Origin: Patescibacteria group bacterium
Lineage (GTDB): Bacteria > Patescibacteriota > Microgenomatia > UBA1406 > GWC2-37-13
NCBI GenBank assembly: GCA_026004455.1
Contig: BPJE01000002.1
Location: forward strand, 5,207 to 69,206
Direction: 5' to 3'
Length of the DNA: 64,000 nt
The translations under genes were made by a program, and so were the position numbers. Positions 6,026 through 62,894 of the stretch are shown here, piece by piece. Numbering within the stretch: position 1 is the stretch's first letter; every line of letters begins with the position of its first letter. Under the pieces are notes generated by a model. That model saw only the letters and a program-made list of their open reading frames with translations. It was not told where the DNA came from and ran no database searches.

Positions 6026-6289
6026 ATGAAATACGAATTGACGCTTCTTCTTGAAAAAGAAGCTTATTTACAAATTGTTAAAGACTTAATTACTACTTTC
6101 AAAGGAAAATTAGAAAAAGAAGAAAAATGGGGTGAAAAAACCTTAGCTTATCCTATTGGTAAAAATAAAAAAGCTTTTTATTTTCATCTTTTAATTTCAA
6201 TGGATAAAAAAGCTATTAAAGAATTCAGACAAAAACTAAATTTTGAAGAAAAAATTATTCGTTATTTATTGTTAGTAGTTGAAAAATAA
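6026..6289 (+). CDS. rpsF: 30S ribosomal protein S6
   Basis: MKYELTLLL..KWGEKTLAYPI is S6-like. It lies directly upstream of ssb and rpsR. Start moved to the internal ATG at 6026 because the tracked 5987 start overlaps the divergent gene. Confidence 0.85.
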   Translation: MKYELTLLLEKEAYLQIVKDLITTFKGKLEKEEKWGEKTLAYPIGKNKKAFYFHLLISMDKKAIKEFRQKLNFEEKIIRYLLLVVEK

Positions 6290-11491: not shown

Positions 11492-11507
11492 AATAAATTT
11501 AAAAATA

Positions 11508-11544
11508 AAGGACAGAACCTTTTTTTAAAAAAAATTCTGTCCTT
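11508..11544. repeat. GGACAGAACC-type REP-like hairpin (degenerate right arm)
   Basis: AAAGGACAGAACC-T/A-run-AATTCTGTCCTT. Confidence 0.7.
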
Positions 11545-11563
11545 ATAATATAAAATAAATAAT

Positions 11564-12261: not shown

Positions 12262-12384
12262 AATCCGACCTACGCGGTCGCCTTTAGATTATTAGGACAA
12301 TACAAAAATTAACAAAAATGACTAATTTTAAATTAACCTAATTATTAAGGACAGAACCTTTTTGAAAAAAAAGGTTCTGTCCTT
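12262..12384 (+). repeat. composite repeat, copy 1 (30-nt GC-rich core, AT spacer, REP hairpin 12347..12384)
   Basis: AATCCGACCTACGCGGTCGCCTTTAGATTATTAGGA..AACAAAAATGACTAATTTTAAA..AAGGACAGAACC hairpin. The reverse complement recurs at 43918..44032. Confidence 0.75.
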
Positions 12385-12467
12385 TTTAATAATAAATAAA
12401 CAAATAATAAATTTTTAATCAATAATAAATATTCAATAATTCAATAAATTAATTGTAGAGACAAGGC

Positions 12468-12720
12468 AATGCCATGTCTTTACAAATTTTATTTTTTATT
12501 GTCATGTTGAACTTGGTTCAGCATCTCTATTATTTTTTTATGAGATCCTGAAACAAGTTCAGGATGACAGTGAGATCCTTAAATAAAATCAGGATGACAC
12601 TTAGAATGAGATCCTGAAATCATGCCTAAGACGGCAGGCACAGCAAGTTCGGTATAACAGATAGTAAAATCCTGAAACCATATAACAGCTAATAAGGGAA
12701 GTTTAGGATGACATTTTTTC
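12468..12720. repeat. cluster of about 6 degenerate hairpin mini-elements (GAGATCCTGAAAC..CAGGATGACA type)
   Basis: GTAGAGACA-loop-TGTCTTTAC, then TGTTGAACTTGGTTCAGCA, ATCCTGAAACAAGTTCAGGAT, ATCCTTAAATAAAATCAGGAT and others. Spacing and sequence are irregular. Confidence 0.6.
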
Positions 12721-16449: not shown

Positions 16450-16494
16450 AGGTTCTGTCCTTACTAAAGACAGAACCTTAAAGGACCGTCCCTT
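16450..16494. repeat. GGACAGAACC-type hairpin (inverted order) plus AAGGACCGTCCCTT tail
   Basis: AGGTTCTGTCCTT-ACTAA-AGACAGAACCT followed by TAAAGGACCGTCCCTT. Confidence 0.75.
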
Positions 16495-19559: not shown

Positions 19560-20332
19560 ATGAAACTCTCTTTAAACAATTTATTTTCTTTTTTTGAAAC
19601 CGTCTTAAAAAAAACTCTTAAAAAACAAAAAAATAAGCTCATTTTAACAATATTTACCTTTAAAAATCAGCAAAAAAAATCAAACCTCGCTTAAATTAAA
19701 AGAAAAAATCGCTAAAAAATTAGGAATAAAACTTAATATTATTGATTTTCAAAAAACTCCAAATTTTATTAGCTTTGCCAAAAACATTAAAAAAGAAGCT
19801 GAAAAAAAAAGAAGTTACAGGCATAATTATTGAAAAACCAATTCCAGCCCAACTAATGACTGATAGTTTATACAACTATATCCCTAAAGAAAAAGAAATA
19901 GAAGGATTAAGATTAAAAGCATTAGTTTTACCTCCTCAGGGATTAGCTATTTTAACAATGATTAAGTATTTTTTAACTGGAAAAATTAATGACAAAATTA
20001 TTATTGATCCAAAAAAAGATGTTAATTTTTGGAAAAAAACATTGAAAAATAAAAAAATTGTTCTTTTAGGTCGAGATGAAATTTATGCAAAACCAATTAC
20101 CAAGGTCTTTCAAGAATTTAAAATCAATCATTTAAACATTGATCTAAATATCAAATCAACTGAGGAATATTTACAACAAGCAGACATCATTATCAATACC
20201 AGCGATAAATCTTTAGAAAATTACTCTCTTAAACCAAATAGCTTTATTATTCACTATTCATCCCTTAACACTTCTCTTGAACCTTTGGTAGTGTATTATT
20301 TGTTTAAGAATATGGTTGGGGTAAATAAATAA
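19560..20332 (+). pseudogene. divergent FolD-like (methylene-THF dehydrogenase/cyclohydrolase) paralog broken by two frameshifts at A8 and A9 runs
   Basis: Three frames join as MKLS..NKLILTIFTFKNQQKK / SLKLKEKIAKKLGIKLNIIDF..EAEKK / EVTGIIIEKPIP..KIVLLGRDEIYAKPI..ADIIINTS. Shifts fall at 19672..19679 and 19802..19810. TGATATAAT lies 7 nt before the ATG. Confidence 0.5.
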
Positions 20333-20456
20333 AATTCAAAATGCAAAAGTCAAATCTGCCAGCTGGCGGACAAAATGAAAATTCAAAATTCAAAATTTAA
20401 AAAAACTTTTTAATTTTAACTTATACTTTTGACTTTTGAATTTTAACTTTTGAATT
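20332..20456. repeat. AT-rich palindromic element, copy A (TTGACTTTTGAATTT words) with an embedded GC palindrome
   Basis: AAATTCAAAATGCAAAAGTCAAA..TCTGCCAGCTGGCGGA..ACTTTTGACTTTTGAATTTTAACTTTTGAATT. Confidence 0.75.
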
Positions 20457-20493
20457 ATTTTTTTAGTGTTAGACGTTAGATGTTAAGTATTAG

Positions 20494-21429
20494 ATGATTA
20501 TAATCACTGGCCAAACTGCAACCGGTAAAACTGCTCTTGCTTTAGAATACGCTAAAAAATATAAAGGCGAACTGGTTAACTTTGACTCTCGCCAAATTTA
20601 CAAATATTTAGATATTATTACTGGAAAGGATTTACCAGCGAAAACGGGTGTTTCGAGCGAAGGGCTCCCGACTGGCCGCAGGCGATTTTTCCAGCCTGCC
20701 GCTGGTCGCCGAGCACAGTCGGGATTACGCTCGAAACAGGACCCGTTTTCGGTATGGTTATATGACATAGTGACTCCTGATCAATATTTTTCATCATTTG
20801 AATATGTAAAAATAGCTCAAAAAGTAATAAAAGATATCAAATTACGAGGCAAAACTCCAATTTTAGTTGGCGGCACATACTTTTATCTTAAACATCTTCT
20901 TTATGGATTTGATTATCAAGTTCCGCCTGATTTTATCTTAAGAGAAAAATTAAATCAAAAATCAGTCGCAGAACTTCAAAAAATAATCCAAGAACTTGAT
21001 CCAGAAATTAAGCAAAAAATGAATCAAAGCGACTGGCAAAATCCAAGAAGACTAATAAGAAAAATCGAAATCCTTAAAAACCAAGGACAGAACCTTTCAG
21101 GTTCTGTCCTTTTAAAGACCGTCCCTGATCTTTTTATTGGCTTAAAACACAAAAACAAAGAACATCTTTATCAAGCAATAAAAACCAGAGTAGAGAAAAG
21201 ATTAAAACAAGGAGCAATTAAAGAAGTAGAAAAAATCTTAAAAATGGGCTATAAAAAAACTGATCCTGGTCTAAATACCATTGGTTACAAACAAATTATT
21301 GATTATCTTGAAGGAAATATCACTAAAGATCAAGCGATTGAAAAATGGATTACCGCCGAGGTTCAATACGCCAAACGTCAATATACTTTTATGAAGAAAG
21401 ACAAGAATATAAAATGGATTGAAATATAA
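20494..21429 (+). CDS. miaA: tRNA dimethylallyltransferase
   Basis: P-loop GQTATGKTALA, DSRQIYKYLDIITGK, ILVGGTYFY. Carries two repeat-derived in-frame segments (20639..20751 and 21083..21125). Confidence 0.9.
   Translation: MIIITGQTATGKTALALEYAKKYKGELVNFDSRQIYKYLDIITGKDLPAKTGVSSEGLPTGRRRFFQPAAGRRAQSGLRSKQDPFSVWLYDIVTPDQYFSSFEYVKIAQKVIKDIKLRGKTPILVGGTYFYLKHLLYGFDYQVPPDFILREKLNQKSVAELQKIIQELDPEIKQKMNQSDWQNPRRLIRKIEILKNQGQNLSGSVLLKTVPDLFIGLKHKNKEHLYQAIKTRVEKRLKQGAIKEVEKILKMGYKKTDPGLNTIGYKQIIDYLEGNITKDQAIEKWITAEVQYAKRQYTFMKKDKNIKWIEI
20639..20751. repeat. GC-rich palindromic element inserted in frame in miaA
   Basis: CGAAAACGGGTGTTTCGAGCG..CCGACTG..CAGTCGG..CGCTCGAAACAGGACCCGTTTTCG. Translated as AKTGVSSEGLPTGRRRFFQPAAGRRAQSGLRSKQDPFS. 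Confidence 0.8.
21083..21125. repeat. GGACAGAACC-type hairpin plus tail, inside the miaA coding sequence
   Basis: AAGGACAGAACCTTTCAGGTTCTGTCCTT + TTAAAGACCGTCCCT, read as QGQNLSGSVLLKTVP. Confidence 0.8.
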
Positions 21430-21432
21430 TTT

Positions 21433-23322
21433 TTAATTTTTTTTAAACAACTTCATAAATGCCTCTTTGGGTACCTCAACTTTTCCTACCATCTTCATTC
21501 TTTTTTTTCCTTCTTTTTGCTTTTCCAAAAGCTTTTTCTTTCGACCAACATCACCAGTCCCCAATACTTTTCCAGATTTCATCAAAACATCTTTTCTAAA
21601 AGGTGCAATTCTTGTTGAAGCAATAATCCTTCCTTTATACTGACCTTGAATCTTTACCTCATACTGCTGTCTTGGGATCAAATCTTTTAACTTGCTTGTT
21701 AAATAACTAGCTCTCTCATAAGCTTTTTCCTCAACAACAATCTCAGAAAATTCTTCAACTGGCTGATTATTGATTAAAATCTTCAACTCATCTGCCTTAA
21801 CATCTCGATAATCTAAAAACTGCCAATCAAGTGAAGCAAAACCAGATGAGACGCTTTTTAGAGCGTCAAAAAAATCCGTAATCATCTCTGCCATTGGCAT
21901 CTCATACTCTAAAATTATTTGATTTTTATTATCCATAGTTAAAAATTGACTGCGATATCTTTGCATTAGTTGCATAATATCACCTAGATATTTTTCTGGA
22001 GTTAAGATAATCACTTTTACCCACGGCTCTTTTTTTACTCCCCGAATATTTGTATCCTGATATTCAACTTTTGGCGGAGTTAAAACAAGGCTTAAACCGA
22101 ACTCTCTTTCAAGTCTCTCCCTGATAACATCAGCATGAAGCAGTCCTAAAAATCCAACTCTAAATCCTGTTCCTAAAGCCTGACTATAAACTCCTTGAAA
22201 CTGCAAAGACGAATCATTCAAAGATAATTTTTCTAAAGCTTTTTTTAAGTTTAAATAATCAGCCGTATCTGTTGGAAAAATTGAAGCAAACACCATCGAC
22301 TTAATTTTTTTATAACCCGGAAGAGAAAGATCATCTTGCTCTTTAAAATCAACCACTGTATCACCAACAGCTACTTGATGGATATCTTTTAAGTTAGTGA
22401 CAACATAACCAATTTCACCGGAAACTAATTTTTCGCTTGGTGTTAAATCAGGTAAAAAATAACCAACCTCATTGATCTCAAAATTAGTTTTTAAATTAGC
22501 TAGTTTTACTTTCAAGCCTTTTTTCAACTCGCCGCTAAACACTCTTACAAAAATAATCACCCCTCGATGAGAATCATAATAAGAGTCAAAAATTAGTGAT
22601 TGAGAACACACCCCATTACCCCTCTCAAGAGGGGAATAAGAGGTATTATTTATAGAAACTCCCCTCTTTGAGAGTGGGTTTGGGGGTGTGTTAGGATCAG
22701 GTATTTTTTTAATTACTGCCTCAAGAAGTTCTTTTACTCCTTGTCCAGTTTTTGCTGACACCAAAAAAACCTCCTCATCTTTCACTCCCAAAAAATCAAC
22801 TAATTGTTTTTTAGTTTTTTCAACCTCGGCATTTGGCAAATCAATCTTATTTATTGCTGGAATAATCACTAAATTTTTCTCAATTGCCTTATAAGCATTA
22901 GCAATTGTCTGAGCTTGGATTCCTTGAGTGGCATCAACCAAAAGAATCACTCCTTCAACACAAGCCAAAGTCCGATCAACCTCATAAGAAAAATCAACAT
23001 GGCCCGGAGTATCAATCAAATTAAGAATGTAATCGGAGGAAGATGTCAAATTTTTTTCAACTTGGGATGTCTGTCCGACAAATGTCGGACTAGGGGACCC
23101 ACTGGAGATAAAAAAATTTGACATCGACTCCGATCTCAAAAACATTCTCACTGGAGCAAGTTTTATCGTAATTCCACGCTCTCTTGATATTGGGTTTCTA
23201 TCCAATAACTGCTCCTCATGTTTTCCAGCTGCGACTATTCCTGTCAACTCCAAAAATCTATCTGCCAAAGTACTTTTTCCATGATCAACATGAGCAATGA
23301 TGGCAAAATTGCGAATAAACAT
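21433..23322 (-). CDS. lepA: translation elongation factor 4 (LepA)
   Basis: IRNFAIIAHVDHGKSTLADR, LIDTPGHVDF, NKIDLP, and a C-terminal LepA domain. Two palindromic in-frame insertions. Confidence 0.95.
   Translation of the reverse strand: MFIRNFAIIAHVDHGKSTLADRFLELTGIVAAGKHEEQLLDRNPISRERGITIKLAPVRMFLRSESMSNFFISSGSPSPTFVGQTSQVEKNLTSSSDYILNLIDTPGHVDFSYEVDRTLACVEGVILLVDATQGIQAQTIANAYKAIEKNLVIIPAINKIDLPNAEVEKTKKQLVDFLGVKDEEVFLVSAKTGQGVKELLEAVIKKIPDPNTPPNPLSKRGVSINNTSYSPLERGNGVCSQSLIFDSYYDSHRGVIIFVRVFSGELKKGLKVKLANLKTNFEINEVGYFLPDLTPSEKLVSGEIGYVVTNLKDIHQVAVGDTVVDFKEQDDLSLPGYKKIKSMVFASIFPTDTADYLNLKKALEKLSLNDSSLQFQGVYSQALGTGFRVGFLGLLHADVIRERLEREFGLSLVLTPPKVEYQDTNIRGVKKEPWVKVIILTPEKYLGDIMQLMQRYRSQFLTMDNKNQIILEYEMPMAEMITDFFDALKSVSSGFASLDWQFLDYRDVKADELKILINNQPVEEFSEIVVEEKAYERASYLTSKLKDLIPRQQYEVKIQGQYKGRIIASTRIAPFRKDVLMKSGKVLGTGDVGRKKKLLEKQKEGKKRMKMVGKVEVPKEAFMKLFKKN
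22604..22692. repeat. GC-rich imperfect palindromic element in frame in lepA (insertion B)
   Basis: AACACACCCCATTACCCCTCTCAAGAGGGG..CCCCTCTTTGAGAGTGGGTTTGGGGGTGTGTT. Encodes NTPPNPLSKRGVSINNTSYSPLERGNGVC just before the conserved LIFDSYYD. Confidence 0.75.
23042..23125. repeat. 84-bp palindromic element in frame in lepA (insertion A)
   Basis: Perfect 16-nt terminal inverted repeats GATGTCAAATTTTTTT / AAAAAAATTTGACATC with an inner hairpin GTCCGACAAATGTCGGAC. 84 nt equals 28 codons (MSNFFISSGSPSPTFVGQTSQVEKNLTS), placed before YILNLIDTPGH. Confidence 0.8.
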
Positions 23323-23335
23323 AAAAATTAAAAAT

Positions 23336-23459
23336 AATTCAAAAGTTAAAATTCAAAAGTCAAAAGTATAAGTTAAAATTAAAAATTTTTTTAAATTTTT
23401 AATTTTGAATTTCAATTTTGACTTTTGAATTTTGCATTTTGAATTTTACTTTTGACTTT
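23336..23459. repeat. AT-rich palindromic element, copy B, in the lepA/mntH divergent intergenic region
   Basis: ATTCAAAAGTTAAAATTCAAAAGTCAAAAG..center..TTTTGACTTTTGAATTTTGCATTTTGAATTTTACTTTTGAC. The right arm is the reverse complement of the left arm of copy D. Confidence 0.75.
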
Positions 23460-23478
23460 ATTATAATATAATATAAAA

Positions 23479-24747
23479 ATGTTAAAAAGATTAAACCTTT
23501 TTTGGAAAAGATTTAAGATAAAACTTCTTCTTTTTTTTGCAGTTTTAGGACCAGGTATTATCACTGCCGTTGCCGATAATGATGCCGGAGGAGTGGCTAC
23601 CTACACAGTTGGCGCTGCCAAATATGGAATGAACTCCCAATTTCTTATTATTCCAATCACAATCATTTTAGCTCTAACTCAAGAAATTGGTGCTCGTATT
23701 GCCATTGTTGCTAAAAAAGGACTAGGCGATCTTATTAGAGAAAATTATGGAGTTTTAATTTCATTAATTATCTTTATTTTATACTTTATCACTAATCAAG
23801 GAGTGGTTTTACAAAATGTCTCTGGTCTTAAAGCCAGTTTTCAGATTTTTAATATTCCTTGGCAACCAGCTTTAATTTTAACCTGTATTTTTTTGATTTT
23901 TTTTGTTATTAAATTTGACTATAAAAAAACTCAAAGAATTTTTATTTTTATGATTCTTTTTTATATTAGTTATATTATCTCCGCCATTCTTGCTAAACCA
24001 AATTGGGGAGAAGCTCTTCGCCAAAGTTTAGTTTTTCCTGATTTAAAATACCTTCCTGATTTAAATTACTGGTTCGCTAACATTGCTATTTTAGGAACAA
24101 CGATTACTGCTTGGGGACAGTTTTTTGTTCATTCATACATTATTGATAAAAAACTTGACCCTCAACATCTAAAGGCTGAAAGAGTTGAAATTTTTTTAGG
24201 CGCTTTTTTAACTAATTTCTTCTCTTGGATGATGGCAGCGGCAGTCACTTATACACTTTTTAAAAATGGCATTTATAATGTTGATGGTTTTTCCGCTGGA
24301 TTAGCTATGAAGCCTTTTGTTGGTGAATTAGCGCCAATTCTTTTTGGTATTGGTCTTTTTGGCGCCTCGATTTTAGGATTAACTATTGTTCCTCTTGCCA
24401 CGGCCTATGTTTTTTCTGAAATGTTTGGTTATGAAGGCTCACTTGATGCTGATTTTAAAAAAGGTAGACTTTTTTATAGTTTTTTTATTTTTCAAATTTC
24501 TATTGGTCTTATCATTGCTCTTATTCCATCAATCAATCTTTTTGATCTAACCTTGTATGTTGATTACTTAAACGGCGCAATGCTGCCAATAATTTTTTAC
24601 TTTTTAGTTAAGTTTTATGAAGATGAAGAAGTAATGGGCCAATATGCTTCCCGCGGTTTAACCAGTATATTAGTTAAAGCCTCAGCGATCATCATCACCC
24701 TTGCTGTCATCATCACTACTATTGGAAAGATAATGGGAGTAGAATAA
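23479..24747 (+). CDS. mntH: NRAMP-family divalent metal (Mn2+/Fe2+) transporter
   Basis: GPGIITAVADNDAGGVATYTVGAAKYG signature and about 11 TM helices. TATAAT at 23467..23472 lies 6 nt before the ATG. Confidence 0.8.
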   Translation: MLKRLNLFWKRFKIKLLLFFAVLGPGIITAVADNDAGGVATYTVGAAKYGMNSQFLIIPITIILALTQEIGARIAIVAKKGLGDLIRENYGVLISLIIFILYFITNQGVVLQNVSGLKASFQIFNIPWQPALILTCIFLIFFVIKFDYKKTQRIFIFMILFYISYIISAILAKPNWGEALRQSLVFPDLKYLPDLNYWFANIAILGTTITAWGQFFVHSYIIDKKLDPQHLKAERVEIFLGAFLTNFFSWMMAAAVTYTLFKNGIYNVDGFSAGLAMKPFVGELAPILFGIGLFGASILGLTIVPLATAYVFSEMFGYEGSLDADFKKGRLFYSFFIFQISIGLIIALIPSINLFDLTLYVDYLNGAMLPIIFYFLVKFYEDEEVMGQYASRGLTSILVKASAIIITLAVIITTIGKIMGVE

Positions 24748-24748
24748 A

Positions 24749-24850
24749 TTTTTCAATTTTCATTTTTCAGTTTTCAATCAGTTTTCAATTTTTAGTTTTC
24801 ATTGAAAAATAAATATTCATTGAAAAATGAAAAATTTAAACTGAAAAATT
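24749..24850. repeat. low-complexity palindrome (TTTTCA words, then TGAAAA words) between convergent genes
   Basis: TTTTCAATTTTCATTTTTCAGTTTTCAATCAGTTTTCAATT..CATTGAAAAATAAATATTCATTGAAAAATGAAAAATTTAAACTGAAAAA. Confidence 0.65.
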
Positions 24851-24884
24851 ATTTCCTTAATTATTTTTCTTTTTTAATTATTAA

Positions 24885-25622: not shown

Positions 25623-25651
25623 CTAACTTCTAACATCTAATACTTAAAAAT

Positions 25652-25748
25652 AATTCAAAATGCAAAATTCAAAAGTCAAAATTGAAAATTTAAAAACTTT
25701 TGACTTTTAACTTAAACTTTTGACTTTTGAATTTTGACTTTTGACTTT
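25652..25748. repeat. AT-rich palindromic element, copy C
   Basis: AATTCAAAATGCAAAATTCAAAAGTCAAAATTGAAAATTTAAAAACTTTTGACTTTTAACTT..TTTTGACTTTTGAATTTTGACTTTTGAC. Confidence 0.75.
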
Positions 25749-25750
25749 AT

Positions 25751-26551
25751 TTAGACATAATCCGCAAACTCGCCCTCTTGTTTTTTAAAAATCAAATAAG
25801 CAATACCAAAAAAAACAATTGAAAAAACTGCTGCTACCATCATACTATTTAAATTCGGCGCTTTTCCACCTAAAATAACTTGTCGATAACCATTGATGAT
25901 CACTGACATTGGATTTAATGAAAAAATAAAACGATATTTTTCTGGAAATTGCTCAACTGGATAAATAATTGGTGTTAAATAAAACCAAATTTGAATAATA
26001 AGATTAAGCAAATACTGAATATCTCTGTAAAACAGATTAAAAGAGGAAATAATCAGGCTTAATCCAGCAGTAAAAAATAACTGAATGATAAAAATTGGGA
26101 TTACCCACAATATTGCTAAATTAACAGAAATTTTATAAAAAATAAAGAAAAAAATAGCGATTAAAACCGAGTAAAAAAAATCAACTGCCTTAGCGATAAT
26201 TGTCGCATAAATTAGTATCTCTCTTGGAAAATAAATTTTAGTGATTAAAGAAGCATTACTAACCAAAGCATTAGCTGATGATGATAAGCTTTGAGTAAAA
26301 AAATTCCAAGGCAAAAGACCAATAATTAGAAAAATTATATAAGGAACATTATAAGATGAGACGCGAAAAATTGTTGAAAAAACAAATGATAAAACTAACA
26401 GTTGAAATAGAGGATTAAGTATCACCCAAGCATAACCTAAAATTGATTGTTTATATCTTTGATTAATCTCTCTGTAAGCAAGATTAAAAAGTAATTCTCG
26501 ATAAAAGATAAGTAATTTTAAATTTTTAAAACCTTTTTTTATTTTCTCCAT
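25751..26551 (-). CDS. ABC-2 type transporter permease (TagG/Wzm-like)
   Basis: 266 aa with 6 TM helices, N-terminal YRELLFNLAYREINQRYKQSILGYAWVILNP typical of ABC-2 permeases. Confidence 0.75.
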   Translation of the reverse strand: MEKIKKGFKNLKLLIFYRELLFNLAYREINQRYKQSILGYAWVILNPLFQLLVLSFVFSTIFRVSSYNVPYIIFLIIGLLPWNFFTQSLSSSANALVSNASLITKIYFPREILIYATIIAKAVDFFYSVLIAIFFFIFYKISVNLAILWVIPIFIIQLFFTAGLSLIISSFNLFYRDIQYLLNLIIQIWFYLTPIIYPVEQFPEKYRFIFSLNPMSVIINGYRQVILGGKAPNLNSMMVAAVFSIVFFGIAYLIFKKQEGEFADYV

Positions 26552-29310: not shown

Positions 29311-29439
29311 AAAATATAAACTATTTTTAACCATTTTTAACCATTTTCAACTAATTTCAACTATTTTTAACTAATTTTGTTTTTGTCATCCAGAACTTGA
29401 TGCGGAATCCAGTAAAAAAAAATGGATTATTATTTTAAC

Positions 29440-29476
29440 AAGGACAGAACCTTTTTTTCAAAAAGGTTCTGTCCTT
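29440..29476. repeat. GGACAGAACC-type REP-like hairpin
   Basis: AAGGACAGAACC-TTTTTTTCAAAAA-GGTTCTGTCCTT. Confidence 0.8.
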
Positions 29477-29510
29477 ATACGTTTTACGTTTCACGTTACA
29501 CATTTTCTTC

Positions 29511-29576: not shown

Positions 29577-30131
29577 ATGAGCCTAAATTTACTTATTGAT
29601 TCAGGCAAAACTGTCTTTACAACCATTGATCTAGGTAATATATTAAAAATAGGAAATAAAAACTATCTTTTGGTTTACATCAATAGACTGAAAAAAAGAG
29701 GTGAAATCAAAATGATTAAAAAGGGAATTTATGTAATCAATAATAATTTTAATGTATTTGAATTAGCCAATAAATTAAGATCTCCATCTTATGTTAGTTT
29801 ACAATCAATTTTATTTAAAAACGGAATTATCTTTCAGGATTATTCTGATATTATTACTTCAATTAGTTACAATACTATCAAAATCAATCTAATTAACAAA
29901 GAATTTAGATATCATAAAATAAAATCAGATTTGCTTTCCAATCCTAAAGGCATTGTTGTTGAAAATAATGTTAGATTAGCGACGCCAGAAAGAGCTTTTA
30001 TTGATTTAGTTTATATTTATAATGACTATCACATAGATAATCTTGATAAACTAAATAAAAATCTTTTATTAGAAATTGCTAAAGATTTTGGAGACAATAT
30101 TTTTAAAAAAATAAAATCATACTATGCTTAA
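29577..30131 (+). CDS. AbiEi-like type IV toxin-antitoxin antitoxin / transcriptional regulator
   Basis: N-terminal winged-helix-like VFTTIDLGNIL..YLLVYINRLKKRGEIKMIKKGIYV. Overlaps the downstream AbiEii-like gene by 8 nt. Confidence 0.6.
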   Translation: MSLNLLIDSGKTVFTTIDLGNILKIGNKNYLLVYINRLKKRGEIKMIKKGIYVINNNFNVFELANKLRSPSYVSLQSILFKNGIIFQDYSDIITSISYNTIKINLINKEFRYHKIKSDLLSNPKGIVVENNVRLATPERAFIDLVYIYNDYHIDNLDKLNKNLLLEIAKDFGDNIFKKIKSYYA

Positions 30132-30813
30132 TCTATTAAAACATCGAGTAGTTCTTTTTAATATTTTAAAAGATATTTATAAAAGCTCTCTTAGTAATTT
30201 ATTGGGATTTAAAGGTGGAACAATGGCTTATTTTTTTTATGGTTTAGATAGATTCTCTGTTGATTTAGATTTTGATATTTTAGATGAGAAAAAAATTGAT
30301 TATGTAAAAAAAGTCCTTCCTGATATTTTAAAAAAATATGGAGAAATAATTGAAAGTTATGATAAATATTCTACTTTATTTTATTTATTATCTTACGAAA
30401 AAAAACAAAGACAAATAAAGATAGAAATTTCAAAAAGAAATATCCTATCAAATTATCATCTTTCAAATTTTTACGGAATTGATATTTATATTCAAAATAT
30501 AGAAGATGCTTTTGCCACAAAACTTTTAGCCTGTACTACAAGAAAAAAAATTGCTTATCGGGATTTTTATGATGTTTTATTTTATTTAAAAAAAGGAGTT
30601 AATCCAAATGAAGAAATTATAAAAAAAATTACTGGAAAAAATTTAGTCGATTATCTAAATTATTTAAAAGAATTTATTGAAAAAAATGTCACTAATCAAA
30701 AAGTAATTGAGGCAATTGGCGAGCTAATTAATGAAAAACAAAAAAACTTTTTAAGAAAAGACTTTAAAAACGAACTCCTATCATATCTCAACCTCTATCT
30801 TAAAAATATATAA
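30124..30813 (+). CDS. nucleotidyltransferase AbiEii/AbiGii-family toxin (DUF1814)
   Basis: GFKGGTMAYFFYGLDRFSVDLDFD matches the family motif (KGGTAL..R.S.DIDF). Confidence 0.7.
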   Translation: MLNLLKHRVVLFNILKDIYKSSLSNLLGFKGGTMAYFFYGLDRFSVDLDFDILDEKKIDYVKKVLPDILKKYGEIIESYDKYSTLFYLLSYEKKQRQIKIEISKRNILSNYHLSNFYGIDIYIQNIEDAFATKLLACTTRKKIAYRDFYDVLFYLKKGVNPNEEIIKKITGKNLVDYLNYLKEFIEKNVTNQKVIEAIGELINEKQKNFLRKDFKNELLSYLNLYLKNI

Positions 30814-30987: not shown

Positions 30988-31005
30988 GTCCGCCAGCTGG
31001 CGGAT
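30988..31005. repeat. loop-less GC palindrome GTCCGCCAGCTGGCGGAT (copy 2 of 3)
   Basis: TCCGCCAGCTGGCGGA is a perfect 16-bp palindrome. Other copies lie at 20355..20370 (one mismatch) and 55016..55033. Confidence 0.8.
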
Positions 31006-31044
31006 TTGATATTTGATTTTTTATTATACGTTCCACGTTCTACG

Positions 31045-31977
31045 TTATACGTTACACATTACACACTTTATCAGCCCCCATACATTTCTCGCTCTCTCAA
31101 TCAAAAAAGCAGGGGAGAGAGGGATGATATCTGGATGTTTAAAAAACAACCGCCACCAGTTGACAACATCTTGCCTTTGTTTAAAACAACCCATTTTTAA
31201 GGAAGTTTTTCGATGATGATGAAAAACAACAATATCAGGCACTAACGCAAATTTATACCCAGCTTTTTTCAATCTTAAAAAAAGATCAACATCCTCCAAA
31301 TACGCAAAAAAACTCTCATCAAATCCACCTAACTTTTCAAAAACACTTCTTTTTATGAGCAAACACGCCGCTGTTAATCCATCTAGATTATTATAACTTG
31401 CAAGCGAAGACACCTGTTTTCGAAGTCTATGACTTGGGGGACCCCCCTTTAGGGGGTGAAGTCGACGAGAAAACACGGTGTCAAGCGGTATAAAATTTTT
31501 AGTAACTAGCTCTATTTTTCCAATCTCCATCACCCTATACCCATAATTTTCTACACTTCCATCAGGATTGATTAATATCGGCGCCACCGCATCCAAATTG
31601 TTTTCTTTGGCAATTTTTAATAATTCATTAATTGGGTTTTTCACAATTTTTAATTTTAAATTGTCATTTTGAGATTTGAGATTTGAATTTTGAATTTTGA
31701 ATTTAATGTCATCATTCAAAAGCAATAACCACTCCGCCTTCGCATATTTTGCCCCCAAATTATTCGCCCTCGCATACCCCAAATTCCTCTCCTGCGGCAG
31801 ATAAACAATGTTTCTATTATTAATTTTGAATTTTAAATTTTCATTTTGACTTTTGACTTTTGCATTTTGAATTATTATTATTTGGTATTCCTTCTTCTCT
31901 TTAAAATAATTAATTAAGTATCTCACTCCCTCCTCATTCGTCAACGTCGGCACAATAACAGAGATTTTATAAAACAT
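31045..31977 (-). CDS. family 2 glycosyltransferase
   Basis: ISVIVPTLTNEE, GYARANNLGAKYAKAEWLLLLNDD, and AYLEDVDL. Contains three repeat-derived in-frame segments, and its tail reads into an ACGT-word repeat. Confidence 0.75.
   Translation of the reverse strand: MFYKISVIVPTLTNEEGVRYLINYFKEKKEYQIIIIQNAKVKSQNENLKFKINNRNIVYLPQERNLGYARANNLGAKYAKAEWLLLLNDDIKFKIQNSNLKSQNDNLKLKIVKNPINELLKIAKENNLDAVAPILINPDGSVENYGYRVMEIGKIELVTKNFIPLDTVFSRRLHPLKGGPPSHRLRKQVSSLASYNNLDGLTAACLLIKRSVFEKLGGFDESFFAYLEDVDLFLRLKKAGYKFALVPDIVVFHHHRKTSLKMGCFKQRQDVVNWWRLFFKHPDIIPLSPAFLIERARNVWGLIKCVMCNV
31409..31482. repeat. GC-rich palindromic element in frame in the GT2 gene
   Basis: GACACCTGTTTTCG..GGGGGACCCCCCTTTAGGGGG..CGAGAAAACACGGTGTC. 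Encodes DTVFSRRLHPLKGGPPSHRLRKQVS. Confidence 0.7.
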
Positions 31978-41781: not shown

Positions 41782-41825
41782 AAGGACAGAACCTTTCAGG
41801 TTCTGTCCTTTTAAGGAGTGTACCT
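41782..41825. repeat. GGACAGAACC-type hairpin plus tail
   Basis: AAGGACAGAACCTTTCAGGTTCTGTCCTT + TTAAGGAGTGTACCT. About 70 nt resembles the copy at 43316. Confidence 0.8.
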
Positions 41826-42575: not shown

Positions 42576-42851
42576 TTATTTTGAAAAACTAATATTAAGT
42601 TTATAACCCAATACTTCTGCTATCTTTTCTAAAAAACCAAGCGAAGGATTAATATTTCCGGACTCAAGTCTAGCTATTGCTGATTGTTTTGTTCCTATTT
42701 TTTCAGCTAATTCTTTTTGAGTAAGACCTTTTTGAATCCTTGCATAAATTAATTGAGATATTGCTTTATAACGAGGAGTTAACCTTTCATATTCTTCTTT
42801 AACTGCTTTATTTTGTAATAATTCTGATTTTAATTGTTTCCAGCTTCTCAT
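42576..42851 (-). CDS. XRE-family HTH antitoxin (HigA-like)
   Basis: LTQKELAEKIGTKQSAIARLESGNINPSLGFLEKIA helix-turn-helix, located downstream of the toxin gene. Confidence 0.75.
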   Translation of the reverse strand: MRSWKQLKSELLQNKAVKEEYERLTPRYKAISQLIYARIQKGLTQKELAEKIGTKQSAIARLESGNINPSLGFLEKIAEVLGYKLNISFSK

Positions 42852-42909
42852 AAATTTTTATAAAAATTATTATTAATAATAATACTAATAATATAACAAA
42901 TATGTTATA

Positions 42910-43239
42910 CTATTTCAAGGACAATAATCTCTGCTTGGCAATTTCAATCTCTTTTTTTGGTGTTTTTTGTTTTTGTTTTTTAAAAGCTGAAAGTAAGTAA
43001 ATTGTCCTTCTAATAAATGTATAAATAATTCTTATTTCTTCTTTTCCTCTAATTCTTAACTCATATAAATTTGAATCAAGTTTTTTAGCATGTGGCATTC
43101 CTAAAAATGAGCCATAAATTTCTAAAAGATCTAAAAGATGGATTATTTTAGCAATTGCTTGAGGTTGTTGTTTTTTAATAAAATCAGCAACTGGTCTTTC
43201 GCCTCTATTTGTCTCAAATTCTAATATTTTCCAATTCAT
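42910..43239 (-). CDS. RelE/HigB-superfamily toxin (phage Gp49-like)
   Basis: WKILEFETNRGERPVADFI..LYELRIRGKEEIRIIYTF..IYLLSAFKK. Start set at the internal ATG (MNWKILEF). Confidence 0.7.
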   Translation of the reverse strand: MNWKILEFETNRGERPVADFIKKQQPQAIAKIIHLLDLLEIYGSFLGMPHAKKLDSNLYELRIRGKEEIRIIYTFIRRTIYLLSAFKKQKQKTPKKEIEIAKQRLLSLK

Positions 43240-43315
43240 ATTCGGATTATGAATTTTATTTTTTATTTTATCAAAATTTAAAAAAACTAAAAATACCAAG
43301 AAATACCAAAAGTCC

Positions 43316-43357
43316 AAGGACAGAACCTTTCAGGTTCTGTCCTTTTAACGAGTGTAC
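43316..43357. repeat. GGACAGAACC-type hairpin plus tail
   Basis: AAGGACAGAACCTTTCAGGTTCTGTCCTT + TTAACGAGTGTAC. Confidence 0.8.
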
Positions 43358-43917: not shown

Positions 43918-44032
43918 AAGAACAGAACCTTTCAGGTTCTGTTCTTTTAAGGAGTGTCCTGTTTAAAATTACTCATTTTTGTTTATTTTTATATTATCCT
44001 GATAATCCAAAGGCGACCGCGTAGGTCGGATT
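43918..44032 (-). repeat. composite repeat, copy 2 (REP hairpin, AT spacer, 30-nt GC-rich core), inverted relative to 12262..12384
   Basis: The reverse complement reads AATCCGACCTACGCGGTCGCCTTTGGATTATCAGGA..AACAAAAATGAGTAATTTTAAA..AAGAACAGAACC hairpin. Confidence 0.75.
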
Positions 44033-44202: not shown

Positions 44203-45873
44203 TTAGATGTTAGATTTTAAATACTCTCCTTCTACCATCTCATCAAATCCCAATTTTCGATAATATTCTCTTGTTCCAACGGCAGCAATCACAGCGATTT
44301 TTTTTAATCCGAAATCTTTGGTTATTTCTTTTGCTTTTTCAATCAGTTTTTTACCTATTCCTTGATGCTGAACATCGCCTTTGTCTCCAATAGGATATCG
44401 CTTGTCCTAAAACATGTAACTCGCGGATAATCGATGAGTCAGAAAGAGAACTAATAAAAAACTTTTCTTTTGAAAAAATAAATGATGGAATTCGCAGCCG
44501 AAGATATCCTAAAAGTTTATAATCTTCATCAACTGTCTCAATAAAAAATTCTTTTCCACCGCTTGATGAGTAGGGGATAATGTTGATTTTTACTTTGCCT
44601 TTAATTTTTTGATTTCTTATTTCCCGACAACGAATACAAGGACATTTCTACTCCTTTTTTCTTTTAAATACTTTTCTAAATTTTGGCGAAAATTTGAAGG
44701 AAAAGTCTCAACCACAAGATCATTTCTTGTCAGATCACGCACTAATCGATTAATCCTCACCCATGGCGGAACAATCTCTTTTTTAAATTTTTCTGTTAAC
44801 CGCCATAGATATTGCTCGTCAATTGGTTTGTATTTTCCTACCTTATACCAATTAGCCAAAGGACTATTTTTCACCACTTGAGTTGGATAAAACTTGATAT
44901 TATCAGGCTTAAAATTTTCACTCTCAAATACCTCTTTTAAAACTTTGATATCTTTTTCAAAATTTGAGCCAGGTAATCCCGGCATCAAATGATAAGTGAT
45001 TTTAAAACCAGCATCACGAAGCATCTTTGTCGCTTTGATAACTGAGTCAATAAAATGACCTCGGTTGACTATCTTTAAAACCTCATCATCAGTTGACTGA
45101 ACTCCAAGCTCGATCCTTGTCACTCCAAGTTTTCTTAAAAAATAATATTTCCTCCTCATTTATATAATCAGGTCGAGTCTCAATCGTTAAGCCAACCATT
45201 CGCGATTTAGCTTTTTCATTTAAAATTTTTGCCTCATCTAAACTCTGACTTTGTGAAAATTTTATCTTTCCTTTTATAATAATTTTTTTCAATATCGCTA
45301 TTTAAACAATCAAAAACTCGTCTCACAAACCATTCTCGATATTTTTTATCATAGAAAGAAAAAGTCCCACCTTGTATAATCAACTCAACTTTATCAATCG
45401 GATGACCAGAAAGGTTAAAACTGGACTAATCGATCAAATGTCTGTTTAAATGGATCATAATCTGATCGGATTGCTCTTAAAACTGCCGCCTCATCGGGAA
45501 AATAACTTTTTGGCGCCTCTTCTACTAAAGCGCAATAAACACAGTTAAAAGGACAAGAGTTTTTTGGAGAGGTAAATACTGACAAAGGGACAATCCCAGA
45601 AAGAGAGCGAATCGAGACCACTTTTAAAACATCTAAAAACTCTTTGTTTTTTATTTAAAAAAATTTTTATTTTGAGAAAAAAATCTTTCATAAATAAATC
45701 TCAAGTGCCAAATTTTGGGAAAAAAATCTTTGATATTTTTTTTATCAATAAATTGACGGATAAAAAAATGAAGTTCTTTTTTATTGGTGATTTTTTTTGT
45801 TGCCAAATACAAAAAAAGTTCTTTTAATAACTCTTCTTTCTCTTTTGGAAAAGTCCTCTGGATAATAAAGCAT
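44203..45873 (-). pseudogene. Elp3-like radical SAM plus GNAT acetyltransferase (tRNA wobble-uridine modification family), fragmented
   Basis: CPFNCVYC radical-SAM cluster (45415..45621), ELGVQSTDDEVL..GHF..ITYHLMPGLPG core (44617..45159), and a C-terminal GNAT QHQGIGKKLIEKA (44203..44400). The frames differ between pieces. Confidence 0.6.
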
Positions 45874-46708: not shown

Positions 46709-47900
46709 ATGACTATTGGAGTTGATATCACGCCACTTTTATTTCCAGCTACAGGTGTTGCTAAATATACTTATAATTTAGTAAAAAATCTTCTTTTAAT
46801 TGATAAAAAAAATCAGTATAAACTTTTTTTTGTTTCAAAAAACTCCAAAAATCATTATCCATTTTTGCAAGAATTTGAAAACCTTGGCGCAAAAAATTTA
46901 TCACTATCAAATTCCTTTTAAATTACTGCAATTTTTTTTGGCAAAAATTAAATATTATTCCCGTTGATTTTTTTGTTGGTAAAGTTGATATTTTTTATGC
47001 TAATGATTTTTTTGCGTTCGCCATCAAAAACAAAAACCATTACCACCATCCACGACCTCACTTGGAAACTTTATCCAGAATATCACACAAAAGAGGTAAT
47101 TGAAGCTCACACAATTAAACTTGAAAAAACCATAAAATATGGTGATGAAATCATTGTTGACTCAGAAAATACAAAAAATGATTTGCTTAAACTTTATCCT
47201 CAAGTTGATAAAAACAAAGTCCATGTCATTTATCCAGGAGTAGAGGAGAGATACAAAGAAAAGTTAAAAGTCCCACCTAAAACGGCGGGCAAGCAAAAGT
47301 CAAAAGTTGACGAAGAAAAGTCAAAAATTATTTTTGAAAAATATTTAAAAAACAATATACGTTCCACGTTCTACGTTTCACGTTACATATTATATGTTGG
47401 CGCTATTGAACCAAGAAAAAAACCTTGATATTGCAATAAAACTATATCATCAACTACTTACTACTAACTACTTACTACTTGATACTAAATTCTTTATCAT
47501 CGGTCGTGCTGGTTGGAAAAATGAAAAAATATTTTCTCTTGTTAAAGATCTTCATCTTGAGGATAAAGTGATATTTTTAGGCTATGTTGAGGATGATGAT
47601 TTGCCAGTTTTTTATCAAAATGCTTTAGCAACTATTTATTTATCAGAATACGAAGGCTTTGGACTGCCACCGCTTGAATCAGCATACTGTGAGACTCCAG
47701 TTTTACTCTACAAAAACTCTTCACTTAAAGAATTATTTACTGATGATTATCCATATGCAAAAAAAGGAGAAGAGCTTGAAACTTTAAAATATCTTATCAA
47801 AAACAAAATCAATCCTAAAAAATACTTAAAACAAGACTTCTCCTACAAAAAAACTGCGCAAGAGTTTCTAAAACTCATAACCAAGGACAGAACCTTTTAG
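46709..47900 (+). pseudogene. GT4-type (GT-B) glycosyltransferase split into three ORFs
   Basis: ILYVGAIEPRK / NLDIAIKLY is joined by removing one A from the A7 tract 47416..47422. EYEGFGLPPLESAYCETPVL is the GT4 signature. A first break lies near the T8 tract 46934..46941. Contains ACGT-word and TACT-word repeats in frame. Confidence 0.6.
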
Positions 47901-49736: not shown

Positions 49737-49843
49737 AAAAAATAAAAAAATTTTAACTAATTAATAAATTATACAAAAAAAAAACAAGGTTGTCCAATAA
49801 ATAATTATGTAACGTATAACGTGGAACTTAGAACGTAATTATT

Positions 49844-49880
49844 AAGGACAGAACCTTTTTTTCAAAAAGGTTCTGTCCTT
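49844..49880. repeat. GGACAGAACC-type REP-like hairpin
   Basis: AAGGACAGAACC-TTTTTTTCAAAAA-GGTTCTGTCCTT. Confidence 0.8.
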
Positions 49881-49892
49881 TTTATTCTTATC

Positions 49893-49996: not shown

Positions 49997-51283
49997 ATGC
50001 TCCAAAAATTATTAAGATTTATCAAACAACCAACTAGCAGAGAAATAATTATTAATACTATTGGTAATTATTTAAATGTTTTTTTTACTGCTTTTTGGGC
50101 GTTTTTGCTTGTTCGAATAATGTCACCATCTGATTATGGAGTTTTAAGTGTTTTACTTAGTATTTCTTATGTTTTAGCTAATATTTTGGATTTTGGCACA
50201 ACCGCTAGTATTTACTCATATCTGCCAAATATTTTTGAAAACAAAAGAGAAAAAGCTTATATATTTTTAAAAACTATTTTTACTTATCAAACTGTTTTTT
50301 CTTTCATTATCATCACTTTGCTTTTTGTTTTTTTTCCTTATTTAGATAAACTTTTTTTCAAAACTGATGCGTCTTTATGGGAACTTTATCTGACAGCTTT
50401 TTCTGTTATTTTTTTTATCTGGCAAAACTATGTCATCAACGCTCTCAATACCACTAAAAAATTTTTATTTTCTAATCTTATTCTAAATATCTCAAATATC
50501 ATCAAAACTCTTTTCATTTTTATACTTTATAAATTTAATCTTGTTAATGTCGGTTCAATTATTTTCACTTTTGGAATTTTAGGACCAGCATTTTTTTTCA
50601 TAATTTTATTTTTCAAAAAAAACAATACAATTTTAAATGTCTTAAAAGCAAAGATTAAAAAAGAAGAATTTCGTTTTGGTTATACTTTTAGTTTTTTTAT
50701 TGCTTCTCAATTTTCTAATCTAGCCCTTCGGATGGATCTTTTTTTATTATCATTTTTTTACCCAAGATCACCGCAAATTGGTTATTATGGTCTATCACAA
50801 AAAATTATCTTGACTATCCTTGCCTCAATCACTGCTGTCACTCAAGTCTTATCACCAAATTTTGCTAAAATTACCTCAAAAATCGAAGCAAAAAAACAGC
50901 TTATAAATGGATTTTTATATCTTTTAATTCCTGCGGGATTATTTATTATTTTATATTTTACGCCTGAATGGATTTTTAATTTGTTTTTTACAAAAAAATA
51001 TAGCCAAACCGTTGCCATTACTCATGCTTTAAGTTTAGCTTTTATTCTTTGTTCGTTTCTAAATTTACCCTTTTTGTTTATTCTTTACACAGCAAAAAAA
51101 ACTTTTCCAATATTACTTACTAACTTAATATTTTTTATAATTGTTTCAATTGGTTGTTATTTTTTAATTCCATTTTTTGGAGTTTTTGGGCCGTCAATAG
51201 CAATAGGGTTTGGGTTTTTTGTGTCTTTAATTATTCTTACTTATTACAACTTTATTGAATATAAAAAATTACCTGAAAATTAA
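49997..51283 (+). CDS. polysaccharide flippase (MOP/Wzx family)
   Basis: About 12 TM helices and the typical N-terminus ..INTIGNYLNVFFTAFWAFLLVRIMSPSDYGV. Start set at the first ATG. Confidence 0.7.
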   Translation: MLQKLLRFIKQPTSREIIINTIGNYLNVFFTAFWAFLLVRIMSPSDYGVLSVLLSISYVLANILDFGTTASIYSYLPNIFENKREKAYIFLKTIFTYQTVFSFIIITLLFVFFPYLDKLFFKTDASLWELYLTAFSVIFFIWQNYVINALNTTKKFLFSNLILNISNIIKTLFIFILYKFNLVNVGSIIFTFGILGPAFFFIILFFKKNNTILNVLKAKIKKEEFRFGYTFSFFIASQFSNLALRMDLFLLSFFYPRSPQIGYYGLSQKIILTILASITAVTQVLSPNFAKITSKIEAKKQLINGFLYLLIPAGLFIILYFTPEWIFNLFFTKKYSQTVAITHALSLAFILCSFLNLPFLFILYTAKKTFPILLTNLIFFIIVSIGCYFLIPFFGVFGPSIAIGFGFFVSLIILTYYNFIEYKKLPEN

Positions 51284-55015: not shown

Positions 55016-55033
55016 GTCCGCCAGCTGGCGGAT
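55016..55033. repeat. GC palindrome GTCCGCCAGCTGGCGGAT (copy 3), 3 nt upstream of tRNA-Gly
   Basis: Read directly. Its flanks (ATATTTGATATTTG) resemble the copy at 30988. Confidence 0.8.
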
Positions 55034-62566: not shown

Positions 62567-62580
62567 TATATGTAATAAAA

Positions 62581-62691
62581 AAATTCAAAATGCAAAATTC
62601 AAAAGTCAAAATTGAAATTCAAAATTAAAAATTTAAAAAAACTTTTGACTTTTAACTTTTATTTTTGACTTTTAAATTTTAACTTTTGAAT
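62581..62691. repeat. AT-rich palindromic element, copy D, in the xer/tRNA-Leu divergent region
   Basis: AAATTCAAAATGCAAAATTCAAAAGTCAAAATTGAAATTCAAAATTAAAAATTTAAAAAAACTTTTGACTTTTAACTTTT..AACTTTTGAATT. Confidence 0.75.
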
Positions 62692-62751
62692 TATTTATTA
62701 TTTATTTATTATTGATTAAAAATTTATTTATTTTTTATTTGTTATTTTAAA

Positions 62752-62787
62752 AAGGACAGAACCTTTTTGAAAAAAGGTTCTGTCCTT
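62752..62787. repeat. GGACAGAACC-type REP-like hairpin
   Basis: AAGGACAGAACC-TTTTTGAAAAAA-GGTTCTGTCCTT. Confidence 0.8.
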
Positions 62788-62894
62788 AATAATTAGATCA
62801 ATTAGGTTAATTAGAAATTAGAAATTTTTTACGTTACACGTTATACGTTCCACGTTACACATTAAATGTTAGACGTTAGATGTTAAGTGTTAGA

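Follow-up and report, generated by a model that had tools for sequence, protein, structure and literature searches.

A GC-rich hairpin repeat carried in frame in miaA of a Patescibacteria bacterium and the apparently undescribed repeat family it belongs to

A 64-kb stretch of contig BPJE01000002.1 from a Patescibacteria group bacterium (hereafter the window) was analyzed, in which miaA, the gene for tRNA dimethylallyltransferase, carries a GC-rich hairpin. This hairpin copy was labelled E1, and the other three in-gene hairpins of the window were labelled E2 to E4. E1 was found to belong to a family of dispersed palindromic repeats, family F, which is apparently an undescribed family of candidate phyla radiation (CPR) bacteria. 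Taken as a whole, the data are probably best explained by E1 being a copy of a non-autonomous selfish palindromic repeat that is tolerated in a permissive loop of MiaA.

E1, family F and the other in-gene hairpins

The GC content of positions 20638-20754 was 62%, against 28.3% for the window, and the strongest GC island of the window was located at 20618-20761, with a peak of 70% per 60 nt. An earlier reading of this DNA from its letters (the sequence-only reading) had singled out a very GC-rich segment of about 113 nt in AT-rich DNA between conserved MiaA blocks, and both composition and place were borne out. Folding of 20630-20760 gave a single long nested hairpin (-70.3 kcal/mol, z = -6.93), and none of 200 dinucleotide shuffles was as stable. 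Three of the nested stems proposed in that reading, CGAAAACGGG/CCCGTTTTCG, TTTCGAGCG/CGCTCGAAA and CCGACTG/CAGTCGG, are part of the minimum-free-energy fold. The proposed inner stem GCAGGC/GCCTGC (20678-20683/20694-20699) exists in the sequence, but RNAfold and the family alignment pair GGCGA/TCGCC plus CCAGC/GCTGG instead. At 113 nt, the length of the hairpin cannot be divided by three; the stretch in which the window departs from the nearest allele measures 117 nt (39 codons). The reading frame of miaA is continuous across E1 as had been claimed; the gain, previously put at about 38 residues, is 35 residues net relative to the minimal loop. An open frame through E1 is unremarkable, because five frames out of six are free of stop codons in this GC-rich sequence.

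Comparison loci and contigs carry L-numbers; L001 is an independent assembly and L035 a Joint Genome Institute (JGI) metagenome contig. Direct searches suggested that E1 was an orphan. An exact search of the JGI metagenomes for its left arm GCGAAAACGGGTGTTTYGAGCG gave 0 matches, blastn-short of E1 against the window and 37 loci recovered the L001 ortholog only, and a protein search with the five open E1 frames concatenated (5.8 billion sequences) returned only its own cluster. With stems that covary and conservation limited to short loop motifs, such searches missed the other copies. These were reached through a borderline 20-nt match to an intergenic hairpin in L094 (7352-7470). This hairpin shares the apex TTTTTCCAGCCTGCYGCTGG and the unpaired motifs with E1; its three outer stems differ in sequence and are paired column for column, with 10 of 10 pairs of the outermost helix (P1) retained despite the changed sequence. 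The first covariance model of family F was built from E1, L001 and L094 and searched against 1.3 Mb of CPR contigs, giving 32 matches at E <= 10, of which 24 were at E < 1e-5. The sequence-only reading had suggested a BLASTN search for further copies; about 30 were recovered through the covariance model. The contigs are of Microgenomates/Roizmanbacteria type, and several of them contained two or three matches (in the triple, two are weak). A later model, R3, was built from 16 copies with E1 and L001 left out. It matched E1 with 87.8 bits (E = 1.8e-21) on the plus strand and 24.1 bits on the minus strand, and all modelled pairs were standard; another family model, R2, gave 145 bits. E1 belongs to family F, and this membership rules out that it is an orphan.

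A typical family F copy reads TTGACGGGTGGCAAGAGTTGAAGGGATCCCGACACGCGCGCAG, a variable hairpin and CGAGCACTGGCGGGAAGAAAACTCTTGACAGGACCCGTCAA. The motifs ACGGGTG, GAAGGG-TCCCG, CGCAG, CGAGCAC, GGGAAGnAA and ACAGGACCCGT follow in this order on a hairpin of five helices, a motif pattern by which E1 is also recognized. In the family alignment A10, which was fitted to the model and for that reason somewhat inflates the pair counts, changes on both sides were seen at 31 of 39 pairs, and 89.7% of the cells were paired, compared with 34-43% when the partners were slid by 1-3 columns; 0 of 500 shuffles reached the observed values. For the second helix (P2), compensatory changes were found at 8 of 11 pairs. 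Paired positions on the modelled strand held 15 G-U but 3 A-C combinations, which hints that one specific strand of family F is the folding strand.

About 20 of the 30 copies lie between genes and may point either way with respect to their neighbours, and about 8 of the 30 matches lie in open reading frames (ORFs). The in-gene copies were located in a first miaA loop (the window, L001, L145 and L158, the P0042 type), in a second miaA loop (L004), and in ORFs of L048 and L050. Those with the same orientation share a common frame and the peptide KTGV..G(L/I/V)P. A scan of the window with Rfam 15 (4227 covariance models) at gathering thresholds detected tRNAs only, an E-value scan of 20400-23500 gave nothing on E1, and typical family F copies (L036, L094, L137 and L151) had no match in Rfam. 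Moreover, family F had no match in plasmids (blastn, 72,556), phages or IMG/VR contigs, and a search of the available literature library found no description of such elements in Patescibacteria.

When folding energy was scanned by regression along the window, three further strong in-gene hairpins were detected. The count of four such cases in the sequence-only reading was therefore correct: two in lepA, one in a GT2 glycosyltransferase gene, and E1 (Table 1). They fall into at least three groups, as E1 is in family F, E3 and E4 are in a second family, family A, and E2 is in neither. The asymmetric family A ends AGCGAAGATACC...GGTATCGAGCT are common to E3, E4, the L001 hairpin at the E2 site, and miaA and lepA hairpins elsewhere, and all of these were recovered both by the covariance model R1 and by a family A profile. 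The consensus fold of family A showed compensatory changes at 14 of 20 predicted pairs. E1 itself was excluded from family A: nhmmer gave no match, R1 gave none at E <= 10 with filters off, and pairwise alignments of E1 with family A scored within the range of shuffled sequences (summed z = 1.05; equalled or exceeded by 47 of 300 shuffles). E3 is also present in L001 and L035, and the Pfam GT2 match of the E4 host protein is split. At the E2 site, L001 (8103-8203; strains about 92% identical) carries a wholly different in-frame hairpin, which is a family A copy. A partial (half) copy of E2 was also seen in an intergenic region of L001 (5818-5847).

A pattern scan of the JGI metagenomes gave at least 145 family A copies on at least 120 contigs. 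Among the matches listed, 33 of 145 (23%) lie in long ORFs, 18 on the gene strand and 15 opposite, and each orientation is read in one frame with a conserved peptide. When 107 metagenome copies were compared with the majority gene strand, 29 were the same, 46 opposite and 32 ambiguous. In the miaA-lepA loci all family A matches are on the plus strand, but these are about 11 independent copies, from which we make no firm claim on strand bias. Several in-frame family A copies may occur in one gene, as seen in L147 (701-2101, Tgt-like, two copies and an apparent third) and L065 (9030-11300, Acs-like, two copies). In L110 (431-2410, LepA) there are apparent copies at both hot spots, one a model match and one recognized from its peptide. 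The identities of these three genes were read from the sequence, with no Pfam result. Family F was found 9-20 nt from family A in one fixed head-to-head arrangement in 14 of 25 copies, a count favoured by the use of the family A pattern to select the loci; family F copies also occur alone. Loci with the head-to-head arrangement are L044, L049, L062, L070, L080, L090, L104, L115, L118, L129, L144, L151 and L155.

The miaA loop and its alleles in related strains

E1 lies between the conserved blocks DIITGKD and (I/V)WLYD. The window MiaA protein is identical to GIW64567.1. MiaA chains in the PDB cover its residues 1-46 and 87-310, and residues 47-86 are extra. The AlphaFold2 model has a confident core, with pLDDT <50 at residues 35-83. 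The sequence-only reading had asked whether the insertion maps to a surface loop, and the model fits with E1 encoding a floppy loop of about 35 extra residues. MiaA was then aligned with 120 homologs (55-87% identical; where the source is named, Roizmanbacteria, Microgenomates or Patescibacteria). The loop at the E1 site has 2-4 residues (PKTK) in many of them, as expected if the segment is lineage-specific, and 5-45 residues of several unrelated types in others. Among the DNA of 34 genome loci, GC-rich loop inserts fold significantly (E1, z = -7.2; L001, -6.1; L012, -4.7; L019, -4.1), whereas AT-rich inserts showed no significant fold (z from -1.6 to +0.9). The motif FDIGYY is common to many of the AT-rich inserts. 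The E1 site of miaA is a hypervariable, permissive loop, and both lepA hairpin sites are likewise variable across 25 orthologs.

The window and L001 are 91-94% identical across 13 kb. L001 carries E1 at the same miaA position with two C-to-T changes, both of which turn a G-C pair into G-U and both of which are non-synonymous. The presence of the same element in an independent assembly answers the objection, raised in the sequence-only reading, that the segment could be a chimeric assembly. Between the two miaA genes, 2 of 117 positions differ in E1 and 53 of 816 (6.5%) outside it (Poisson P = 0.02). The differing codons outside E1 comprise 39 synonymous and 11 non-synonymous ones. Protein-level constraint on E1 is not visible from the substitutions between window and L001.

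On the other hand, L035 miaA is 96.2% identical to the window outside the insert and has no similarity inside it. Between GATTTACC and TGGTT, where the window has the 117-nt E1 segment, L035 has an unrelated AT-rich segment of 111 nt (37 codons) that is unstructured (z = -0.5). This segment is homologous to the loop inserts of the next-nearest MiaA homologs. Because the L035 type is shared with the nearest outgroups, E1 is the derived state and replaced an older loop. E1 in miaA thus did not arise by a recent, clean insertion at a vacant site; it took the place of an earlier AT-rich loop of 37 codons. From the sequences, this swap resembles an exchange of alleles through homologous recombination.

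The window, L001 and L035 are mutual mosaics, in that long tracts of L035 match the window at 100% identity and others are L001-like, indicating frequent homologous recombination within the population. At the E2 site of lepA the grouping of strains is switched: E2 is common to the window and L035, and L001 has the other hairpin. Given the three-strain mosaics and this switched grouping, loop alleles are shuffled by homologous recombination. A similar patch was observed for L145 and L056. Their miaA genes, otherwise about 100% identical, differ in the loop and in a patch of synonymous changes clustered on both sides, about 50 nt upstream and 40 nt downstream. The loop of L145 is a family F copy and that of L056 is short and unrelated. 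As judged from these alignments, the patch is the signature of a recombination tract that brought the element in. In 20300-23500, compared with L001 and L035, tracts of 100% identity were seen to alternate with tracts of 83-92%, and the nearest relative changes from tract to tract.

Origin of E1, alternative explanations and known repeats

Under the preferred explanation, family F would be a non-autonomous repeat of about 110 nt that is dispersed in Patescibacteria genomes of Microgenomates/Roizmanbacteria type. One particular strand would fold as a long hairpin of five stacked helices, the stems drifting in sequence while pairing is kept. A minority of copies would sit in permissive surface loops of housekeeping proteins, surviving there by a length that preserves the frame and a GC-rich sequence free of stop codons. 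E1 would be transcribed and translated with miaA, the ribosome presumably reading through the hairpin, and would thereby insert about 35 residues between DIITGKD and VWLYD, a flexible loop with a high content of Gly, Arg, Ser and Pro. This loop most likely has no role of its own in MiaA and would be neutral. The lineage would have acquired the hairpin allele when a miaA segment already containing it was brought in by homologous recombination, and the original entry of such elements into genes would have been by transposition, with an enzyme acting in trans.

Several observations weigh against this explanation. E1 is the only family F copy in the 64-kb window. No transposase, RAYT (REP-associated tyrosine transposase) or TnpA was found among the 52 of 57 window ORFs that were scanned against Pfam, which are housekeeping, toxin-antitoxin or cell-envelope genes. 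No recurrent neighbour or transposase gene was found near family A or F copies among 273 flanking ORFs, which cluster as ordinary housekeeping families (Acs, Tgt, QueA, PurA, LepA, NadA/B). Neither a target-site duplication nor a flanking direct repeat nor a conserved terminal inverted repeat was seen at family F copies, and their outer stem sequence varies and covaries among copies. It is therefore the dispersal of the copies that points to transposition. Moreover, loop conservation combined with stem covariation is a pattern seen in functional RNAs more typically than in a classical miniature inverted-repeat transposable element (MITE), even if the pair counts are somewhat inflated as noted above. 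The low divergence of E1 between window and L001 could reflect selection on E1, or equally a recent recombination tract.

The main alternative is that family F could be a functional structured RNA or single-stranded DNA site, such as an mRNA stabiliser, RNase site, translation pause, small RNA or protein-binding site, with the peptide as a by-product. The conservation of loop motifs while four helices covary, the ratio of 15 G-U to 3 A-C on one strand, the two E1 substitutions that preserve pairing and alter amino acids, and the lower divergence of E1 than of the remaining miaA would all agree with such a function. The frequent spacing of F and A copies by 9-20 nt in a fixed arrangement (14 of 25, with biased fishing) would agree as well. 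However, intergenic copies occur in both orientations relative to the flanking genes, these genes have no common theme, near-identical strains differ in whether they carry the element, and Rfam gives no match. Near-identical copies at many unrelated loci resemble recent amplification. We thus consider a functional RNA or DNA site unlikely. A further idea is that families F and A form a two-hairpin structured module whose conserved internal loops and covarying stems are recognized as folded single-stranded DNA or RNA by a trans-acting CPR enzyme. It would make them a new class of structure-guided mobile element or noncoding RNA able to live inside essential genes, and we regard this as rather unlikely too.

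Much less probable is an adaptive, lineage-specific MiaA loop that was selected for its peptide, for tRNA or partner binding, with the hairpin incidental. Long inserts at this loop in many lineages and the protein-level conservation of the FDIGYY insert type would suit it, and an Arg-rich peptide could in principle contact RNA. Yet conservation of the peptide motif is confined to places with a conserved DNA motif, both E1 substitutions between window and L001 are non-synonymous, and L035, with a 96% identical miaA, has an unrelated peptide. In addition, family F is mostly intergenic, and AlphaFold2 gives no confident structure to the insert.

A local de novo palindrome, made by template switching or a snap-back replication error, is highly improbable. 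The right outer arm CCGTTTTCG does resemble L035 coding sequence CCATTTTCA (PFS), and the exact-arm and peptide searches found no other copy; but a GC content of 62% could not be copied from local sequence of 28% GC, the family consensus ACAGGACCCGT includes the arm CCCGT, and the highly significant membership in family F contradicts a local origin. An assembly chimera or sequencing artefact is hardly credible, for although the GC content jumps abruptly within a gene of a metagenome-assembled genome, E1 stands at the same place in the independent assembly of another strain (L001, two single-nucleotide differences), homologous copies occupy this site in contigs of further metagenomes (L145, L158), and the reading frame is kept. 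An intron or intein was also rejected: intron models gave no match, 39 codons are too few for an intein, and the hairpin length of 113 nt is not divisible by three.

The preferred explanation, a selfish repeat tolerated in a loop, resembles what is known of Rickettsia palindromic elements (RPEs), which were reported by Ogata et al. in 2000 (Science 290:347; summarized in PMC10969869 and PMC1458961) and comprise ten described families. RPEs are dispersed hairpin repeats, mostly intergenic but often also found in frame within housekeeping genes, and the peptides they encode are conserved (PMC10969869). In R. bellii, 526 copies are known, 53 of them in genes (PMC1458961). The repeats studied here are likewise dispersed families of about 100-150 bp with a stable hairpin, mostly intergenic and with a sizeable minority in frame in unrelated housekeeping genes (family A, 33 of the 145 copies listed in long ORFs; family F, about 8 of 30). 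Their in-gene copies encode a conserved peptide, insertion occurs where the protein fold tolerates it (the MiaA loop is hypervariable and the insert has pLDDT <50), and a transposase is absent within the element. Unlike RPEs, whose hosts are Alphaproteobacteria, they are found in Patescibacteria. They also differ in that families F and A form GC-rich islands in an AT-rich genome, family F stems covary while its loops are conserved, and the miaA copy replaced an earlier loop segment via allelic recombination. The likeness to RPEs drawn in the sequence-only reading holds, as a functional likeness and not a demonstrated one in sequence. E1 may thus be called analogous to RPEs, not a demonstrated RPE member.

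The repetitive extragenic palindromic (REP) sequences and bacterial interspersed mosaic elements (BIMEs) of Gammaproteobacteria are mobilized by RAYT, are about 35-40 nt long and have a conserved GTAG head. To our knowledge, REPs are essentially never inside genes. Like REP/BIME, the repeats described here are imperfect, mostly extragenic palindromes that are non-autonomous, structure matters for their recognition, and elements of different types stand as inverted pairs separated by short linkers, as is often the case for families F and A. In contrast, family F is about 110 nt with five helices and no GTAG head, some copies are in genes, and no RAYT-like gene is in the window. Classical MITEs (Correia, ERIC, Nezha, BOX) have been reviewed (PMC10969869). 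They too are small, non-autonomous, dispersed and hairpin-forming, with occasional in-frame ORF fusions; family F differs by having no conserved terminal inverted repeats or target-site duplication, and no parent insertion sequence with a transposase was among the 52 scanned window ORFs or the 273 flanking ORFs. Palindromic amphipathic repeat coding elements (PARCELs) are similar in that they too are dyad-symmetric coding sequences which spread from genome to genome and are expressed within proteins. PARCELs, however, are tandem repeats of 25 residues that form amphipathic domains in membrane proteins, whereas E1 is a single hairpin in a housekeeping enzyme. In our view, the kind of element is known, and family F is new both as a family and in its host group; the combination of loop conservation and stem covariation, the F/A pairing and the allele swapping are its unusual features.

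If the preferred explanation is true, selfish DNA within protein genes, a phenomenon of Rickettsia, extends to the candidate phyla radiation. Its spread there appears wide, with copies in MiaA, LepA, Tgt, QueA, Acs and glycosyltransferases. It would help to explain the odd low-complexity loop insertions that are so common in CPR housekeeping proteins, and would be a warning for annotators and phylogeneticists that such loops may be repeat-derived and exchanged by recombination. Two repeat families with conserved structure would also offer a handle for finding the mobilizing enzyme in very small genomes.

Neighbouring genes and further repeats of the window

The coordinates of miaA, of E1 and its parts, and of the other hairpins are listed in Table 1.

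Table 1. Features of the window, in window coordinates
Feature	Position	Strand	Basis
miaA, tRNA dimethylallyltransferase, 311 aa, host gene of E1	20494-21429	+	Pfam IPPT, E = 5.8e-56
Family F repeat copy E1, full covariance-model match	20635-20755	+	Models R3 and R2 (scores in text)
117-nt (39-codon) segment replacing the 111-nt AT-rich segment of L035; encodes AKTGVSSEGLPTGRRRFFQPAAGRRAQSGLRSKQDPFSV	20638-20754	+	miaA alignment, translation
P1 5′ arm CGAAAACGGG	20639-20648	+	Pairs with 20742-20751
P2 5′ arm TGTTTCGAGCG, starts with conserved GGTG context; TTTCGAGCG lies within	20649-20659	+	Pairs with 20728-20738
Internal-loop motif (G)AAGGG(C/A)T	20660-20666	+	Conserved across family F copies
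P3 5′ arm CCCGACTG; CCGACTG lies within	20667-20674	+	Pairs with 20716-20723
Conserved motif C(G)CGCAG	20676-20681	+	Family F alignment
Variable apical module, P4 GGCGA/TCGCC and P5 CCAGC-CTGCC-GCTGG	20681-20710	+	Apex near-identical to L094 7401-7420
Conserved motif CGAGCAC	20710-20716	+	Family F alignment
P3 3′ arm CAGTCGGG; CAGTCGG lies within	20716-20723	+	Fold, family alignment
P2 3′ arm CGCTCGAAACA, followed by conserved bulge GGA (20739-20741); CGCTCGAAA lies within	20728-20738	+	Fold, family alignment
P1 3′ arm CCCGTTTTCG	20742-20751	+	Fold; C-to-T in L001 makes one G-C pair G-U
E2, in-frame hairpin in the lepA linker between G domain and domain II	22597-22690	-	Folding scan; in neither family A nor F
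E3, family A repeat in frame in lepA (gene on - strand)	23030-23138	+	R1 91.7 bits; nhmmer E = 5e-17
E4, family A repeat in frame in GT2 glycosyltransferase gene (31045-31977, - strand)	31397-31495	+	R1 60.1 bits
AAGGACAGAACCTTTTT...AAAAAGGTTCTGTCCTT hairpin	11505-11550, 12345-12390, 16450-16480, 29438-29478, 41785-41815, 43920-43950, 49842-49882, 62750-62790		

An ORF located 5′ of miaA (19742-20332) was 42% identical to residues 78-286 of folD from the equivalent position in L036, with a 23-residue gap, and had no match in the Pfam scan. An intact folD is present elsewhere in the window (51280-52131). The ORF is a truncated folD paralog, probably a decaying duplicate.

Other repeats were also observed. 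The near-perfect hairpin AAGGACAGAACCTTTTT...AAAAAGGTTCTGTCCTT occurs in at least 8 intergenic regions and looks like a shared terminator-type repeat. AT-rich palindromes of AATTCAAAAGTCAAAAG-type units fill the intergenic regions 20327-20464, 23324-23459, 24742-24855, 25636-25755 and 62578-62710; this type of repeat is also translated in frame, as 'KVKSQNENLKFKI' in the GT2 gene that hosts E4 and as 'NSKFKIQNSK' in MiaA homologs. A small intergenic palindrome, (G)TCCGCCAGCTGGCGGA(C), was seen at 20355-20372, 30989-31006 and 55016-55031, and it also forms the apex of in-frame hairpins in L012 miaA (6165-6185). A third hairpin type, GTCATCCTGAAC...GTTCAGGATGAC / GTCATTCCC...GGGAATGAC, is intergenic in the window (12494-12575), in L001 (10420-10512) and in L006, L012 and L018. 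It also appears in frame in MiaA and LepA of L036, as recognized from the peptides IPAYAGMT and LRGRNDE only.

Among the remaining genes, a GT4 glycosyltransferase is apparently split into overlapping ORFs (46964-47428 and 47394-47900), and only the C-terminal part of the Pfam domain was matched in a radical SAM ORF (44617-45159); both may be frameshifts or pseudogenes. An AbiEii-type toxin gene (30124-30813) and a Gp49/helix-turn-helix (HigB/HigA-like) pair (42576-43317) are located among housekeeping genes.

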